Shown here piece by piece: positions 58,756 through 62,979 of a stretch of 64,000 nt of DNA. The position numbers and the translations under genes were made by a program. The first letter of the stretch is position 1. The number at the start of each line of letters is the position of its first letter. The notes under the pieces were generated by a model. That model did no database searches. It was not told the origin of the DNA and saw only the letters and a list, made by a program, of their open reading frames with translations. The stretch comes from an uncultured Verrucomicrobiae bacterium (lineage in GTDB: Bacteria; Chlamydiota; Chlamydiia; Chlamydiales; Rhabdochlamydiaceae). The stretch covers positions 1,408,001-1,472,000 of the forward strand of contig OY970364.1 of assembly GCA_963718565.1 (NCBI GenBank), read 5' to 3'.

Positions 58756-59622
58756 ATGTCAACAATTGGAAAAACTATTTTTGTTCCAAGCGATGTTCTA
58801 GATCAAATTTGTTATCATGTATTAAAGGGTGCCAAATCCTTAGATGATGCTAAATCCTTAGTGCGCTTTCAACGAGTTTCAAAAAATTTTTACTTGGCAG
58901 CGGGCAATGACGTTTTTTGGCAGACTTTATTGAAAAACATATGTGGGATAGATGTGTCTAATGGAAAAGGAAAAGAAGCTTGGAATGTTCCCATATTACG
59001 AAATCGGAATGATCTGTTCAACACAGTGGAGGCATTTCAATGCCGTCTCGAATTGTGGAAGACAAGACGTTTGGAATGTTTGGTTCCAAGCCACCCTCCT
59101 ATGTCTTTAGAGGTCAGTTTTGGGCCGCCTTCAGATTTAAAAGCTGATCAAACACATCGTTATCTTTTTCTCGGCAACGTGGAGGAATTGCGGAAAGTTC
59201 AACATTCTTCATGTGAGAGTAGTGCTTTCCTCGCAAACAAGCCCAACTACCCCTACCATGAAAAATCCCGTTCCTGTTTTCAGCTTTTTCGTAACTGCAT
59301 GCTACAAGCCCCAATAATAGAAATAAAAGAAGTTGATATCGGAAATGACCATACACTTGCTTATTATTCTTCCATTGATAATTGGAAAGAACTCTTTAAA
59401 CTCTTCCCTGTTTCCGGAGACAATGGACGGCCAGTAATGTGGGCTGGGCGAATACCTCTTCATGCGGAATTCAAATTTGTTAAGATTGCTCCCAACGGTG
59501 ACTTCACATGGGAAAATCACGCTGGAAATCGCGTACATCCTAATAAAAACTGGTCAGCTTACTTCAAGGAGCAACCTGTTTCATTTTCCTTATCCCAAGT
59601 TCGCCCGAGAGAGCTGACCTAA
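58756..59622 (+). CDS. Degenerate F-box + CBM20-like protein (paralogue 1)
   Basis: VPSDVLDQI...FQRVSKNF..AGNDVFW; C-terminal DNW...WAGRIP..AEFKFV...TWEN..NR. Confidence 0.75.
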   Translation: MSTIGKTIFVPSDVLDQICYHVLKGAKSLDDAKSLVRFQRVSKNFYLAAGNDVFWQTLLKNICGIDVSNGKGKEAWNVPILRNRNDLFNTVEAFQCRLELWKTRRLECLVPSHPPMSLEVSFGPPSDLKADQTHRYLFLGNVEELRKVQHSSCESSAFLANKPNYPYHEKSRSCFQLFRNCMLQAPIIEIKEVDIGNDHTLAYYSSIDNWKELFKLFPVSGDNGRPVMWAGRIPLHAEFKFVKIAPNGDFTWENHAGNRVHPNKNWSAYFKEQPVSFSLSQVRPRELT

Positions 59623-61660
59623 GTCCCTCATAATCAACAACATTAAAATCAACCTTTGCTTTCGTAAGTCCTTTATTTTTAGTGCTTTGCTGTTTTTGCG
59701 AATTTGTAGTGACTGAAAATTTGTAAAATAATTATTTCATGTTTAAATAAATTCGATCCATCGGTAAGATCTGAGGGCATGTATATAAGAAAAACCCTCA
59801 AGACAGACCGTAAGAGCGGAAAAACCTACTCTGCTTTTCACTTGGTTGAATCCGTGAGGACTGATAGAGGCCCGCGCCAACGCGCGCTTCTATACATGGG
59901 AGCCGAAATCAACCTCCCAGAAGAACAGCATGCACTTCTCGCTCAATGCATTGAAGATATTCTTACAAGTGCGCAATCGTTATTCGCTTATCCAGAAGAG
60001 ATTCAAAAGCTAGCCCAATCTTACACCTCGCAGATTGTGCGTCGTTTGTCCGACCCAGGAGACAACGCGGAACAACTAAAACAAGATCTACTACCTGAAT
60101 TTGTCAATATCGACGTTCATTCAATTGAACAGACTGAACCACGGTCTGTTGGTGCGGAACATCTCTTACTTCAGATGGGAAATCAACTCAAACTGCCGGA
60201 ACAGCTGCAAAAACTAGGCCTTTCAAAAACAGATGCCGCAATTGCCTTGGGATCGATCGTTGCCAGGGCTGTACACCCAAGCAGCGAAAGGGAAGCTTAT
60301 CGGTGGCTATGCACTAGCAGTGGTCTTGGCGAATTACTTGATTTCGACTTTACAAAAACTACTTTGCACAAGCTCTATAAAATCAGCGATACGTTGCTGT
60401 CTCATAAAGACGGGTTGGAAACAGCTTTAGAAACCATCGAACAGCAATTTCATGGATACAAAAGTACAATAGCTCTCTACGATTTAACCAATACCTATAC
60501 AGAAGGGCGGGCTGAGGCAAATCCAAAAGCTGCCTATGGTCTTTCGAAAGAAAAACGAAATGATTGCCCTCTCATTACTATAGGGCTAGTCATGAATGAG
60601 CACGGATTTCTCATCAAAACCTCATTACTTGCAGGAAATGCTTCAGAGCCCCAAACCCTACAAACAATGATCGCGAGCCTAAGTATTCACTCGTCTCTAA
60701 TCAAGCCAACTATTGTATTGGATGCAGGGATTGCTACCGAAGAGAATCTGACCTGGTTACGCAAGAATAGATATACGTATGTTGTCTCAGCAAGACAAGA
60801 TCCTCCCGTTGTTGAATTTGAAGGACAATTAGTCTCAGTAGGTGATCAGCATGACCTAGTAAAAGCTGCCTTGATCAGTCAGGATGGTAATGAGGAAAAT
60901 TGGCTCTATTGCGAATCTGAAGCAAAAGCAGCGGTCGCCTCAGGGATGAAGAAAAAATTCAGAAAACGATTTGAAGATGATCTACAAAAACTTGCGAATG
61001 GTCTTTCCAAACCTAAAGGGCGCAAGAAGCATAACAAAGTGCTTGAACGGGTAGGTCGGCTCAAGGAAAAGCATAAGAGAATTTCAGGATGCTATGAAGT
61101 CAATGCAATTCCTTCAGAAGATGGGCTCACCACAATTGCTGTGGAATGGAAGGTGATCGAAGAAAAAATGCAAGAAAAGCTCACTGGCTCCTATTTTCTG
61201 AGAACAAATCGAACCGATTTGGAAGCAAAAGAGTTATGGCAATTGTATAATGTTCTCAAAAGCGTTGAGGATGCGTTTCGATTTATGAAATCCTCATTAG
61301 GATTGCGTCCAGTCTATCACCAGAAGGAACATCGAGTGGACGGGCATTTATGGATCACCATACTTGCCTACCATCTAATCCAACACTGCAGGCACCAATT
61401 AATTCGAAAAGGGATAAACTATTTGTGGCAGACAATACGTAATATCATGATTACTCGAGTCCGAGTAACTGTGCGGGCCAAGACAACAGAAGGCAGGGTG
61501 CTCTACCACCGCAGCACTACAAAGGCAGAAGGCGAGCAAATAGAGATTTACAGGGCGCTGGGATTATCGTCTTCAATTCTCAGAGGTCATAAAACACTCG
61601 TTTAATTCAAGATGTAGTGACGAATTTGCATAGCTCCTCTGGGAAAGCCGCGAACTTGGG
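59594..61660 (+). mobile_element. IS1634-family insertion sequence, complete
   Basis: TIRs CCCAAGTTCGC / GCGAACTTGGG; TTAT duplicated at 59590-59593 and 61661-61664; subterminal TGTAGTGAC at 59705 and 61613. Confidence 0.92.
59779..61605 (+). CDS. IS1634-family DDE transposase
   Basis: LVESVR..GPRQR, LYDLTNTY, YGLSKEKR.D, VLDAG, VEDAFRFMKS.LGLRPVYH. Confidence 0.92.
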   Translation: MYIRKTLKTDRKSGKTYSAFHLVESVRTDRGPRQRALLYMGAEINLPEEQHALLAQCIEDILTSAQSLFAYPEEIQKLAQSYTSQIVRRLSDPGDNAEQLKQDLLPEFVNIDVHSIEQTEPRSVGAEHLLLQMGNQLKLPEQLQKLGLSKTDAAIALGSIVARAVHPSSEREAYRWLCTSSGLGELLDFDFTKTTLHKLYKISDTLLSHKDGLETALETIEQQFHGYKSTIALYDLTNTYTEGRAEANPKAAYGLSKEKRNDCPLITIGLVMNEHGFLIKTSLLAGNASEPQTLQTMIASLSIHSSLIKPTIVLDAGIATEENLTWLRKNRYTYVVSARQDPPVVEFEGQLVSVGDQHDLVKAALISQDGNEENWLYCESEAKAAVASGMKKKFRKRFEDDLQKLANGLSKPKGRKKHNKVLERVGRLKEKHKRISGCYEVNAIPSEDGLTTIAVEWKVIEEKMQEKLTGSYFLRTNRTDLEAKELWQLYNVLKSVEDAFRFMKSSLGLRPVYHQKEHRVDGHLWITILAYHLIQHCRHQLIRKGINYLWQTIRNIMITRVRVTVRAKTTEGRVLYHRSTTKAEGEQIEIYRALGLSSSILRGHKTLV

Positions 61661-61671
61661 TTATGAGATTC

Positions 61672-61730
61672 TATACCGCGCGCAGGAAGGTTTTGTGAAT
61701 TTGGACTCAGCGAGGCAAAGCACAATCGAA
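61672..61730. repeat. Family D left fragment
   Basis: Matches about 1584-1643. Confidence 0.9.
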
Positions 61731-62009
61731 TAAACCATAGATGTTCACCTCCTGTGACAAAGGCGGGAGATTTTCGAGAAAAAGACAAAGGACCGTTGAC
61801 GGCGCGTTTAAAAAAAATAACTTGTTAATGTAACATTTCTATTCTACTCTATAACAACAACTTAAAACAAACTAAAGAAAACAAGGTGTAAAAAAAGTTT
61901 AAAATAAATACATTTTTTATTATAATCTAATATAACCAGATTGAAATTATTTTAATAATTAATCTGATTTATTATTTTAATATAAATTTTAAAAAACGTG
62001 AGATTGTTT

Positions 62010-62858
62010 ATGTCGATAACAATAAGTAAACAAGTTGATGTTCCAGAAGAAATCTACGGTGAAATTTTTTCTTACCTAAATGTTCCATCTCTAGGAAGAT
62101 GTCAGCAAGTGTCAGAAGATTTTTACAAATTAGCGGGCAATGACGAGCTTTGGAGGATTTTATTCAAGAATGCATTCGGGATAGATGTGTCTAATGGGAA
62201 AGAAGCTTGGAGTATTCCCGTAGTACGAAGTCGGGGTCAACTGCTCGAAAAAGTGCAAGCATTTCGATGCCGTCCTGAATTGGAGAAAAAAATACGTTTT
62301 GAATGTTTGCTTCCAGGCGGTAACTCTATCTATCTCGAAGTCAGTTTTGGGTCGATTTTGGTATCACTAAATAGGTTTCTTCCTTCTGAAGTTTATCAAA
62401 CACATCGTTGCCTTTTTCTCGGCGACACGAACTTATTGACAAAACCTACGAACTTATTGACAAAACCTAATTGTTTGGTGTCTGACAAGCTTGCTTACAT
62501 CACAAGTATTCCCTGCTATGAGAAATTCCATTCCTATTTTAATCCTTTGCGTAACCAGATACTGGTCCAAGTAATAGAAATAAAAGGAGTTGATGTCGGA
62601 GATGGCAACAGACTAGCTTATTGTTCTTCCATTGATGGTTGGAAAACACTCTTTAAACTCTTTCCTCTTCCCGGGAGCACTGAACAGTCAGTACTGTGGG
62701 TTGGCCGAATACCTCTTAATGCGGAATTCAAATTTGTTAAGATCGCTTCCAACGGTCAGGTCACATGGGAAAATCGCGATCAGAATCGCATATTTAATAC
62801 TCCTCAGCCAAACTACTCAACTCATTTTAATGACGATCCTATTTCATTCTCCTCATGA
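62010..62858 (+). CDS. F-box + CBM20-like protein (paralogue 2)
   Basis: VPEEIYGEIFSYLNVPSLGRCQQVSEDF..AGNDELW is a canonical F-box; C-terminal DGW...WVGRIP..AEFKFV...VTWENRDQNR. Contains a 21-bp tandem duplication at 62427-62468. Confidence 0.8.
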   Translation: MSITISKQVDVPEEIYGEIFSYLNVPSLGRCQQVSEDFYKLAGNDELWRILFKNAFGIDVSNGKEAWSIPVVRSRGQLLEKVQAFRCRPELEKKIRFECLLPGGNSIYLEVSFGSILVSLNRFLPSEVYQTHRCLFLGDTNLLTKPTNLLTKPNCLVSDKLAYITSIPCYEKFHSYFNPLRNQILVQVIEIKGVDVGDGNRLAYCSSIDGWKTLFKLFPLPGSTEQSVLWVGRIPLNAEFKFVKIASNGQVTWENRDQNRIFNTPQPNYSTHFNDDPISFSS

Positions 62859-62979
62859 GATTCTATACCGCAATTCAGGTTAGGAATAGCGCGGACCATA
62901 AACTCATTTTCATAAAGAGATAAGTTTGACCGACAAGGATCTGGACATTTGTCTCTGGCATAGAGTATAGGAGAAGAAT

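Follow-up and report, generated by a model that had tools for sequence, protein, structure and literature searches.

A tandem pair of chlamydial F-box/CBM20-like genes inserted in a type III secretion cluster: candidate ubiquitin-ligase adaptors for host glycogen

Within the 64,000-nt window analysed here, from an uncultured chlamydia-like bacterium, two related genes lie between sctO and a cdsP-like gene of a type III secretion system (T3SS) cluster, in the surrounding order sctD-cdsG-sctN-sctO ... sctQ. The pair constitutes a 4.4-kb insertion, whose features are collected in Table 1. In five of six same-genus genomes sctO directly adjoins the orthologue of the cdsP-position gene, and these empty sites bear out the original prediction that the genes had been inserted in the T3SS operon. 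Sixteen of the 18 other genomes of the genus have an sctO orthologue (55-88% identity, E<=1e-10), and the cdsP-position gene gave no match in Pfam or NCBIfam. The spacer remnant at the right edge can be aligned to the short spacers between sctO and cdsP in three relatives (G230, G299 and G178), and aligns poorly to that of a fourth (G426). The location beside T3SS genes is found in this genome alone and is no trait of the gene family: no T3SS neighbours were found at six loci of family members in five other genomes, and because it is absent at all six it constitutes weak evidence for co-regulation.

Table 1. Positions in the window of the gene pair, its repeats, the mobile elements and the flanking genes
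Feature	Position	Strand	Details
sctO (YscO-like), left flank	58009-58548	+	Pfam YscO-like, E 3.4e-52
Duplicated AT-rich region upstream of copy 1	58630-58729	+	direct repeat with 61890-61989
Sigma-70-like promoter match, copy 1	58637-58665	+	TTCAAA-17-TATAAT, 10/12
Identical 32-nt blocks	58677-58708 and 61937-61968	+	hairpin-forming
Copy 1, F-box/CBM20-like gene	58756-59622	+	288 aa; ORF list
18-nt tandem duplication in copy 1 F-box	58822-58857	+	LKGAKS/LDDAKS; repeat search
CBM20-like domain, copy 1	59320-59589	+	aligned with 12 other modules; C-terminal HMM, E 4e-33
IS1634-family insertion sequence, 2.07 kb	59590-61663	+	inserted at copy 1 stop codon
IS1634 transposase ORF	59779-61605	+	608 aa; NCBIfam transpos_IS1634
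17-nt 3' end motif, copy 1, displaced by the insertion sequence	61663-61679	+	100% repeat of copy 2 motif
End of short dispersed MITE-like repeat	61672-61730		solo; genome matches
Duplicated region upstream of copy 2	61890-61989	+	direct repeat with 58630-58729
Promoter-like match, copy 2	61898-61926	+	place equivalent to copy 1 match
Copy 2, F-box/CBM20-like gene	62010-62858	+	282 aa from ATG 62010
F-box of copy 2	62037-62165	+	residues 14-56; Pfam, profile matches, fold
Middle region, copy 2	62220-62555	+	residues 75-186
Perfect 21-nt tandem duplication in disordered loop, copy 2	62427-62468	+	TNLLTKP x2; repeat 100%
CBM20-like domain, copy 2	62556-62849	+	residues 187-284; Foldseek, VIA-align, phmmer
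17-nt 3' end motif, copy 2	62855-62871	+	100% repeat of 61663-61679
Native sctO-cdsP spacer remnant, right insertion edge	62935-62975	+	alignment with relatives' spacers
cdsP-position gene, right flank	62980-63999	+	Pro/Glu-rich; runs beyond window

The two open reading frames are paralogues, as had been described: the proteins share 46% identity (BLASTP, E 5e-79), and the HMM of their family matches copy 1 with E 6.6e-76. The native coding sequence of copy 1 spans 58756-59589 (278 codons), and its final 10 codons and stop lie within an insertion sequence. For copy 2 an alternative GTG start is open at 61998 and would give 286 aa; the residue numbers of copy 2 used here (F-box 14-56, CBM20-like 187-284) follow this 286-aa numbering. 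The claimed upstream duplication is present (74% ungapped; 87% over 102 nt by blastn), as is the 17-nt downstream repeat, whose copy 1 instance lies beyond the insertion sequence. Sigma-70-like matches in the region do not in total exceed those in shuffled sequence, and the 10/12 match is equivalently placed in both copies. The 32-nt hairpin-forming block occurs genome-wide at these two sites only. A tandem duplication gave rise to the pair, whose members are diverging quickly. Copy 2 is the more canonical of them, since copy 1 has an insertion in its F-box and an insertion sequence at its stop codon.

The transposase of this element matches NCBIfam transpos_IS1634 at E 2.2e-77 and 261.1 bits (cut-off 100), and its 14-nt inverted repeats (59591-59604 and 61650-61663) are complementary at 13 of 14 positions. 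Thirteen further full-length copies with 99.6-99.95% identity lie elsewhere in the genome. Contig breaks at the element fall at 59590 in runs X2 and X4 and at 61663 in runs X2 and X3. The element arrived after the pair had been inserted, on the stop codon of copy 1; it was absent from the original prediction. The neighbouring MITE-like end matches 19 other genome sites over at least 51 nt, several of which form inverted pairs about 170-230 nt apart.

Both genes belong to a family of about 300 residues without an earlier name, with 44 cluster representatives at E<=1e-10; full-length members were found in this genus and a single sister genus but nowhere else. An N-terminal F-box had been proposed for both copies. 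In copy 2 it is supported by Pfam, profile and fold, scoring 40.2 bits against F-box-like (PF12937; cut-off 24.3) and 26.5 bits against F-box (PF00646; cut-off 20.5), while in copy 1 both scores fall below the cut-off (F-box-like, residues 11-59, 20.0 bits; F-box, 13.5). The copy 1 F-box carries an 8-residue insertion, seen as an alignment gap, because of the 18-nt tandem duplication. Family-wide, at E<=0.01, F-box-like is matched in 39 of 40 members and F-box in 34. The family profile matches F-box proteins solved with Skp1 (beta-TrCP, FBXL5, FBXW7 and Skp2) at E 3.6e-9 to 1e-5 and the Legionella AnkB chain 5k35 at E 0.018. In VIA-align, residues 10-75 of the copy 2 model superpose on FBXO31, Fbs2, FBXO3, Fbw7, Cdc4, FBXW8 and beta-TrCP from Skp1 complexes, with rmsd 2.4-5.0 Å over 58-68 residues and Z 5.2-7.1, which the tool calls its "middling" range. 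Another 23 F-box ORFs occur in this genome. The middle region gave no match in a Pfam search, and its first half is common to a wider chlamydial F-box family (hhalign of the two family alignments, probability 99.8%, E 3.1e-29, columns 5-146). A loop at residues 150-168 is disordered in the copy 2 model (pLDDT <50).

The C-terminal domain is more divergent in sequence. Copy 2 passes the Pfam CBM_20 cut-off marginally (PF00686; 23.9 bits against 23.3, profile positions 46-93 of 97), copy 1 scores 12.2 bits, below the cut-off, and only 7 of 40 family members match at E<=0.01. In the PDB, the only non-F-box matches of the family profile at E <0.5 are CBM20 chains (1cyg, 0.0043; 6fhv, 0.018; 1ac0, 0.041), and the next are two AlkB-homologue chains (E 0.53-0.6). 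The AlphaFold2 model of copy 2, built on a 40-sequence alignment, has pLDDT 83.4 and pTM 0.80. All 12 of its Foldseek matches at E<=1e-3 are starch-binding-domain proteins (E 5.4e-5 to 9.6e-4), among them glucoamylase, beta-amylase, maltogenic amylase, the GDE5 CBM20 and chain 4rkk, a match in VIA-align as well, which is presumably laforin. VIA-align places CBM20 domains (Z 6.6-8.2 over 84-96 residues) above CBM25, CBM48, CBM21, CBM26 and CBM41 (Z 4.5-5.5), although a Z of about 8 falls in the range that the tool says a common arrangement can produce.

The conserved residues point the same way. Glucan-binding site 1 of CBM20 consists of Trp543, Lys578 and Trp590 in Aspergillus niger numbering (PMC9920598, in its available text), and these align with Trp215, Lys245 and Trp257 of copy 2 (phmmer against the glucoamylase starch-binding domains 1ac0 and 2vn4). 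Both copies have the Trp/Lys/Trp triad, as do most of the 40 members (Trp215 in 38; Lys245 in 35, with Arg in 3; Trp257 in 32, with Tyr in 4). Trp234, the equivalent of the site-2 Trp, is kept in 40 of 40, and the other site-2 aromatics are not conserved in the phmmer alignment, where Ser227 stands opposite Tyr556. Across 13 CBM20-like modules of six architectures the triad is invariant or at least 90% conserved; the NR motif is kept across these and across the family, and the Trp, Trp, Phe-Lys and Glu columns are invariant between copy 1 and 12 other modules. The CBM20 assignment of the original prediction thus stands for fold and site 1 and is marginal or sub-threshold by Pfam score. The domain is, on its modelled structure, a CBM20-like beta-sandwich and a candidate alpha-glucan binder.

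The same module is attached to other partners. In same-genus sister genomes it lies C-terminal to a USP deubiquitinase (E 1e-24) and a BTB domain (4.1e-16), and it also ends LRR, NUDIX and borderline U-box proteins, a set that links it to ubiquitin. Within this genome the module is most closely related to the C-terminal end of a GlgB-like branching enzyme of 1175 aa that also carries Pfam CBM_20, a relationship that links it to glycogen. Secretion of the pair is predicted from its place between sctO and the cdsP-like gene and by analogy with other chlamydial F-box proteins, which carried type III secretion signals when assayed in a heterologous system (PMC4209131).

These features suggest that the two genes encode secreted SCF substrate adaptors directed to host glycogen, a reading given a probability of about one half. 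The genes would yield secreted, eukaryote-like F-box proteins whose N-terminal F-box docks on the host Skp1-Cullin-1 ligase, while the C-terminal sandwich would bind alpha-1,4-glucan, either host glycogen or, in an algal-type host, cytosolic starch. The SCF ligase would thereby be placed on the polysaccharide particle, and ubiquitination of particle-bound proteins could lead to the store being re-routed or degraded. Secretion, Skp1 binding, glucan binding, targets and outcome are all predicted in this scheme. No RNA run was found to contain the locus. SCF ligases act on lysines of proteins and would not be expected to tag glycogen directly. If the scheme is true, the bacterium steers the host protein-tagging machinery onto the host sugar store.

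It is possible, though rather unlikely, that the proteins are true secreted F-box adaptors whose sandwich has been re-purposed for a host protein or another glycan. The marginal CBM_20 score and the unconserved site-2 aromatics fit such a change, as does the excess of dN (0.28) over dS (0.20) between the copies in the CBM20 part, which is expected for a surface tracking changing protein targets. There are also precedents: the beta-sandwich of Fbs1/Fbs2 reads N-glycans, and point mutants of predicted sugar residues in the RNF213 CBM20 left pathogen recruitment unaltered (PMC11549300, as far as its available text goes). The family-wide retention of the site-1 triad and NR motif, extending through 13 modules that include the branching enzyme's, would however be difficult to account for after a loss of glucan binding. 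A glucan binder acting without SCF, which displaces or shields against host CBM20 proteins or acts on inclusion glycogen and uses its F-box for some other contact, is highly improbable. Chlamydiae such as Chlamydia trachomatis secrete glycogen enzymes, and the F-box of copy 1 is sub-threshold. C. trachomatis also transfers host glycogen to its vacuole (PMC4829429, available part). Against this, the F-box is the best-conserved part of the proteins (39 of 40 members; dN/dS 0.6 between the copies) and resembles Skp1-bound F-boxes in both sequence and fold. Moreover, to our knowledge Skp1 occurs only in the host cytosol.

The pair might instead be a recent, fast-decaying duplicate with little or no present function, carried as a passenger of mobile elements and not necessarily secreted. 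Overall, dN/dS comes to about 1 for the two copies (0.36/0.35), so relaxed constraint on one copy is possible, and the insertion sequence on the copy 1 stop codon with its 13 further copies, the solo MITE-like end, the in-frame slippage duplications in both genes and the T3SS position unique to this genome are all compatible with decay. Yet neither frame is broken at a nucleotide divergence of 28%, and of 5000 neutral simulations run to that level only 2 remained free of stops. Every length difference between the copies is in frame. Of the 29 columns that are at least 85% conserved among the other 38 family members, 26 are retained in copy 2 and 23 in copy 1, and the 32-nt leader block is identical although its flanks have diverged. 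Decay is an improbable account of the pair.

For the preferred reading, that of SCF adaptors directed to glycogen, the nearest analogues appear to be laforin-malin and host RNF213. Laforin is a CBM20 phosphatase and malin a RING-NHL E3, and in this system CBM20 brings E3 activity to glycogen. Unlike these two proteins, the chlamydial genes each encode one protein, proposed as an adaptor for host SCF and not as an E3 itself. The label of laforin-malin mimic holds as a functional analogy and fails for domain content, as phosphatase, RING and NHL are absent (Pfam at E<=1 gives F-box-like, F-box and CBM_20 only). RNF213 is likewise a single polypeptide that has both a CBM20 fold and the function of a ubiquitin ligase, and its CBM20 region is under positive selection; in contrast to the gene pair it is described in the text available as a giant eukaryotic AAA+/RZ-finger immune E3, with no F-box among those parts (PMC11549300). 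No sequence relation between the pair and RNF213 was found in this analysis. The architecture had been thought undescribed: literature searches turned up no published account of an F-box-CBM20 fusion, but RNF213 already provides a CBM20-bearing E3 (PMC11549300). An engineered CBM20-tethered HOIL-1L places ubiquitin on glycogen foci and leads to lysosomal trafficking, the outcome proposed here for a natural fusion; that construct is artificial, and HOIL-1L attaches ubiquitin to the sugar itself (PMC13345935, available text). An SCF adaptor is expected instead to mark proteins bound to glycogen.

Among bacterial proteins, resemblances lie in the F-box. Agrobacterium VirF is an injected F-box effector that hijacks host SCF. 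Legionella AnkB and Ralstonia GALA (PMC2244805, in the text at hand) are, like the pair, bacterial F-box proteins, and theirs are injected and hijack the host SCF ligase. The target-binding parts of all these effectors are, unlike the CBM20-like domain, ankyrin or LRR repeats with protein ligands, and literature searches found no carbohydrate-binding module on other bacterial F-box effectors. The NEX/PEX proteins of Neochlamydia and Protochlamydia share with the pair an N-terminal F-box, an environmental chlamydial origin, tandem copies and birth-and-death evolution, and the representatives tested in a heterologous assay carried signals for type III secretion (PMC4209131). Their F-box is joined to LRR or TPR repeats in place of a conserved middle region and CBM20-like domain, and the words "starch" and "carbohydrate" are absent from the accessible text of that paper (PMC4209131). 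The eukaryotic Fbs1 and Fbs2 share the order of an F-box followed by a carbohydrate-reading beta-sandwich, but their sugar-binding domain belongs to another family and recognises the N-glycans of glycoproteins. In VIA-align, the Fbs2/Skp1/Man3GlcNAc2 chain 8zuh aligns with the copy 2 model through the F-box region alone (Z 6.9).

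Two paralogous genes stand between sctO (YscO-like) and the cdsP-like gene of a type III secretion system (T3SS) cluster, and their proteins align over the full length at 46% identity (E 5e-79). The original prediction had read them as duplicated F-box and CBM20 fusions with a repeated upstream stretch and a repeated motif after the stop codon, and both ORFs and both repeats are real. In Pfam, the proposed architecture is borne out for copy 2, which exceeds every curated cut-off (F-box-like 40.2 against 24.3 bits, F-box 26.5 against 20.5), narrowly so for CBM_20 (23.9 against 23.3 bits, profile positions 46-93 of 97), while copy 1 falls below the cut-offs at 20.0 (F-box-like) and 12.2 (CBM_20) bits. 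The F-box of copy 1 carries an 8-residue insertion, traced to an 18-nt tandem duplication, and this copy may be impaired. The middle region (residues 75-186 in the 286-aa form of copy 2, whose numbering is used throughout) has no Pfam match.

Features of the gene pair, its surroundings and a related locus (window coordinates unless a contig range is named; G000 is the window's own genome)
Feature	Position	Strand	Details
Copy 1 ORF	58756-59622	+	288 aa
Copy 2 ORF	61998-62858	+	286 aa; 282 aa from ATG 62010 (stored form P0001)
Duplicated upstream stretch	58630-58729 / 61890-61989
Promoter-like matches	58637-58665 (copy 1), 61898-61926 (copy 2)		same relative place, 10/12
Identical 32-nt leader block	58677-58708 and 61937-61968		forms imperfect hairpin or palindrome
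Slippage duplication, copy 1	58822-58857		18-nt tandem repeat, 78% identical, in frame; lengthens F-box loop
Slippage duplication, copy 2	62427-62468		perfect 21-nt repeat, in frame; TNLLTKP twice in disordered loop
Duplicated 17-nt motif after stop	61663-61679 / 62855-62871
IS1634-family insertion sequence (IS)	59590-61663		E 2.2e-77; 14-nt terminal inverted repeats
DDE transposase ORF	59779-61605		608 aa; between the copies
Solo end of ~59-nt dispersed repeat	61672-61730		19 other genome sites, at least 51 nt
Native sctO-cdsP spacer	~62935-62975
sctD	neighbour of pair		E 7.1e-52
CdsG-family gene	neighbour of pair		169.2 bits, cut-off 170
sctN	neighbour of pair		E 1.1e-193
YscO-like gene	neighbour of pair
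Locus L059	G000:C1:1472001-1491000		just past window, after cdsP-like gene; SctQ/FliN gene, kinase-phosphatase gene, five F-box-WD40 genes
GlgB-like branching enzyme (L058)	G000:C1:1532400-1536200, ORF 131-3658	-	1175 aa, unusually long

The predicted fold assigns both ends of the protein. An AlphaFold2 model of copy 2 built from 40 family sequences reaches pLDDT 83.4 and pTM 0.80, and confidence drops only in residues 1-8 and 150-168; the two paralogues alone gave pLDDT 30.7. A Foldseek search of the PDB with this predicted model returns 12 matches at E<=1e-3, every one a starch-binding-domain (SBD) protein. These include the glucoamylases 2vn4 and 6fhv, Bacillus cereus beta-amylase and its isolated SBD, a five-domain amylase, the GDE5 CBM20 and chain 4rkk, which we take to be laforin; the STBD1 CBM20 ranks just under this set. 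In an all-against-all structure alignment, residues 187-284 match CBM20 domains with Z 6.6-8.2. The same method gives Z 4.5-5.5 for CBM25, CBM48, CBM21, CBM26 and CBM41, ruling out a closer affinity of the C-terminal domain to CBM48, CBM21 or CBM25. Residues 10-75 align with F-boxes from Skp1 complexes at Z 5.2-7.1, and by HMM and fold tests the pair belongs to the F-box superfamily. Since a Z near 8 is middling for this tool, the fold evidence depends on several methods agreeing. Against PDB sequences, the family profile finds F-box proteins best (E 3.6e-9); its sole non-F-box matches at E <0.5 are CBM20 domains (E 0.004-0.04), followed by two AlkB-homologue chains at E 0.53-0.6. The top ESM Atlas scores (0.75-0.76), below the level that the tool counts as more than a lead, belong to clusters bearing CBM_20.

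The predicted glucan sites can be followed residue by residue. In phmmer alignments, Trp234, Glu243, Lys245, Trp257 and Asn263 of copy 2 correspond to Trp563, Glu576, Lys578, Trp590 and Asn595 of the Aspergillus niger glucoamylase SBD, Trp215 corresponds to the LGNW tryptophan of the Hypocrea enzyme, and Ser227 occupies the Tyr556 position. CBM20 site one is described as Trp543, Lys578 and Trp590, all well conserved, and site two as conserving only Trp563 (PMC9920598). The pattern of putative glucan-site residues in copy 2 agrees with this description. Within the family, the site-one residues are kept in 38/40, 35/40 (plus three Arg) and 32/40 (plus four Tyr) members, and Trp234, Glu258 and Arg264 in all 40.

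The analysis shows the architecture, residue conservation, genomic context and module re-use; the export and binding steps are our inference. The proteins would be exported from the bacterium, the F-box would bind host Skp1, the CBM20-like domain would anchor the SCF complex so formed to glycogen (or to starch in the cytosol), and proteins on the glycogen would receive ubiquitin. As an outcome, glycogen-metabolising enzymes might be lost, or the particle might be delivered to lysosomes. We hold this reading to be the most likely one, with a probability of about one half.

To our knowledge, the target-binding parts of known bacterial F-box effectors bind proteins. An F-box joined to a starch- or glycogen-binding module would instead direct a host SCF ligase to an energy store, not to a single protein. 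AnkB and GALA are injected F-box adaptors with the mode of action proposed here, and differ in the target-binding part (PMC2244805). The pair had also been cast as a one-protein mimic of laforin-malin: the combination of CBM20 with ligase function is the only common point, shared also with RNF213, and the pair is a member of neither system. Ubiquitination at glycogen in cells is a recent demonstration, and HOIL-1L artificially tethered to glycogen through CBM20 suffices for ubiquitin on glycogen and lysosomal trafficking (PMC13345935), which shows that a scheme of the proposed kind is workable in cells. If a pathogen made such a protein naturally, the glycogen-ubiquitination field would have a ready tool and chlamydial biology would gain a new route from bacteria to host carbon; the version here includes BTB, USP and perhaps U-box siblings with the same module. 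Pathogens are already known to take an interest in host glycogen: C. trachomatis relocates it (PMC4829429) and Legionella injects an amylase (PMC8262857). A full-text literature search, judged by titles and the starts of abstracts and with subscription journals outside its range, returned no description of F-box-CBM20 fusions or of bacterial ubiquitin effectors that carry a CBM20, in keeping with the prediction that the architecture is undescribed. The proteins are small (~280 residues), and glucan binding, Skp1 binding and localisation are accessible to ordinary assays without growing the organism.

The CBM20-like module is also found on other proteins. A genome-wide search of the pair's own genome with the C-terminal HMM gives, besides the two copies, only the C-terminus of the GlgB-like enzyme (E 1.6e-7). 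This enzyme carries CBM_48, a catalytic alpha-amylase domain, GlgB_N, a Pfam-certified CBM_20 and then a related second CBM20-like module, the nearest in-genome relative of the effector domain (hhalign 90.6%, E 1.3e-6). An alignment of 13 modules has invariant Trp, Trp, Phe-Lys and Glu columns, and its profile finds the module in 15/19 genomes of the genus, with 1-12 matches each. Among 13 further carriers scanned with Pfam, an N-terminal partner is recognised in five and none in eight. Same-genus partners are BTB (E 4.1e-16), LRR (two carriers), NUDIX (23.2 bits) and a borderline U-box (L069; 25.0 bits against a cut-off of 21.4, with no single stretch below E 0.001), for which phmmer finds no solved relative. 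Further forms among the carriers combine two modules with an F-box or with a USP-type deubiquitinase (E 1e-24), the latter being 100% identical to an ORF in genome G337. Same-genus loci with the module are L060 (BTB), L054 (USP), L069, L071, L066, L042 and L015. The fusion to NUDIX points to a hydrolase of sugar nucleotides that would be held on glycogen. No indirect argument for ubiquitin chemistry at the glycogen particle as the biological theme is stronger than the presence of three to four independent ubiquitin-system domains on one putative glucan-binding module. A wider and rather unlikely extension is that the lineage built a set of glycogen-addressed ubiquitin-system effectors, copying the CBM20-like module of its own branching enzyme onto F-box (Cullin-1 adaptor), BTB (Cullin-3 adaptor), a possible U-box E3, USP deubiquitinase, LRR and NUDIX proteins, which would write and erase ubiquitin on the host glycogen particle, controlling glycophagy or carbon release. 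If true, this set would parallel in nature the engineered CBM20-E3 tethering by which glycogen is cleared via lysosomes.

The family is narrowly distributed. A word-indexed protein search returned only the two copies, and an exhaustive profile search covering 1.84 billion representatives yielded 60 proteins at E<=1e-3, with 44 at E<=1e-10, mostly 280-335 aa long and matched end to end. Ten members looked up are all metagenomic and named 'hypothetical protein', 'F-box domain' or nothing. Full-length members occur in 6/400 scored phylum genomes: this one, four more of the genus and one of a sister genus. The F-box and the N-terminal half of the middle region (columns 5-146) are common to a wider chlamydial F-box family (hhalign 99.8%, E 3.1e-29) whose proteins, ~230-260 aa, are without the CBM20-like end; hence the family resembles an older F-box scaffold to which a predicted glucan-binding tail was added later. 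Four metagenome-assembled genome records with family members (L050-L053) bear differing non-chlamydial phylum labels, although by gene content they fall in this chlamydia-like lineage; the submitters seem to have assigned the labels coarsely.

The local gene order is that of the Chlamydia cdsD...cdsN-cdsO-cdsP-cdsQ-pkn5 cluster. TLC-type nucleotide translocases are typical of energy-parasitic obligate intracellular bacteria, and this genome has four full-length and one partial match (L072-L075). From the gene order and the four full-length translocases, the organism is taken to be an obligate intracellular, chlamydia-like bacterium; the chlamydial hallmark Hc1 was not found in its genome with Pfam. 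Altogether, 23 further F-box ORFs lie in the genome. In L059, the kinase gene joins a protein kinase to a phosphatase domain of SpoIIE/PP2C type, and the five-gene F-box-WD40 cluster is broken by a Mutator-family transposase.

The pair was predicted to be inserted in this cluster, and comparison with relatives agrees. Six same-genus genomes have sctN and sctO, five of them with the cdsP-like gene next after sctO at a spacing of 42-278 nt, and none of those compared has a family member at the site. The window has 4,431 nt between these two genes and retains the native spacer, which marks the pair as an insertion. Contigs from four metagenome runs (two studies, which may include the source sample) give partial, low-depth coverage and span both outer junctions; a look-up of RNA runs listed none with the locus. 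A T3SS position as a trait of the whole family is ruled out by six loci in five other genomes, which have no T3SS neighbours within ~8 kb on each side; this location is therefore particular to the one genome and carries little information on the family. The spacer motif CTGGAC..TTTGTCT...GTATAG, 5' of the cdsP-like gene, is conserved in genomes G230, G299 and G178 and may serve the T3SS genes that follow as a promoter or regulatory site.

Divergence of the two copies raises the question of decay. Their dN/dS is ~1 (0.36/0.35), with regional values of 0.35/0.58 in the F-box, 0.46/0.38 in the middle and 0.28/0.20 in the CBM20-like part. Neutral decay is ruled out by a random-substitution simulation at 28% nucleotide divergence, which left the frames stop-free in only 2/5000 runs, together with the 29 columns conserved at >=85% in the other 38 members, of which 26 are retained in copy 2 and 23 in copy 1. 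The figures fit fast, diversifying evolution over a core that stays conserved, a pattern reported for F-box families of chlamydiae (PMC4209131).

Mobile DNA has shaped the region. The IS1634-family element between the copies, absent from the original prediction, has 13 other full-length copies at 99.6-99.95% identity and several partial ones in the 2.28-Mb genome, which points to a recent transposition burst. It sits at the exact end of the copy 1 coding sequence; the ORF now extends 10 codons into it and the conserved 17-nt 3' motif lies on its far side. Metagenome contigs of the element break at 59590 (runs X2, X4) and at 61663 (X2, X3). The total of promoter-like matches in the region is not above that in shuffled sequence. 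The 32-nt leader block, whose flanks have diverged between the copies and which has no other genome match at <=4 mismatches, may be an operator or RNA element. Finally, several sites of the dispersed repeat are inverted pairs ~170-230 nt apart, resembling MITEs.
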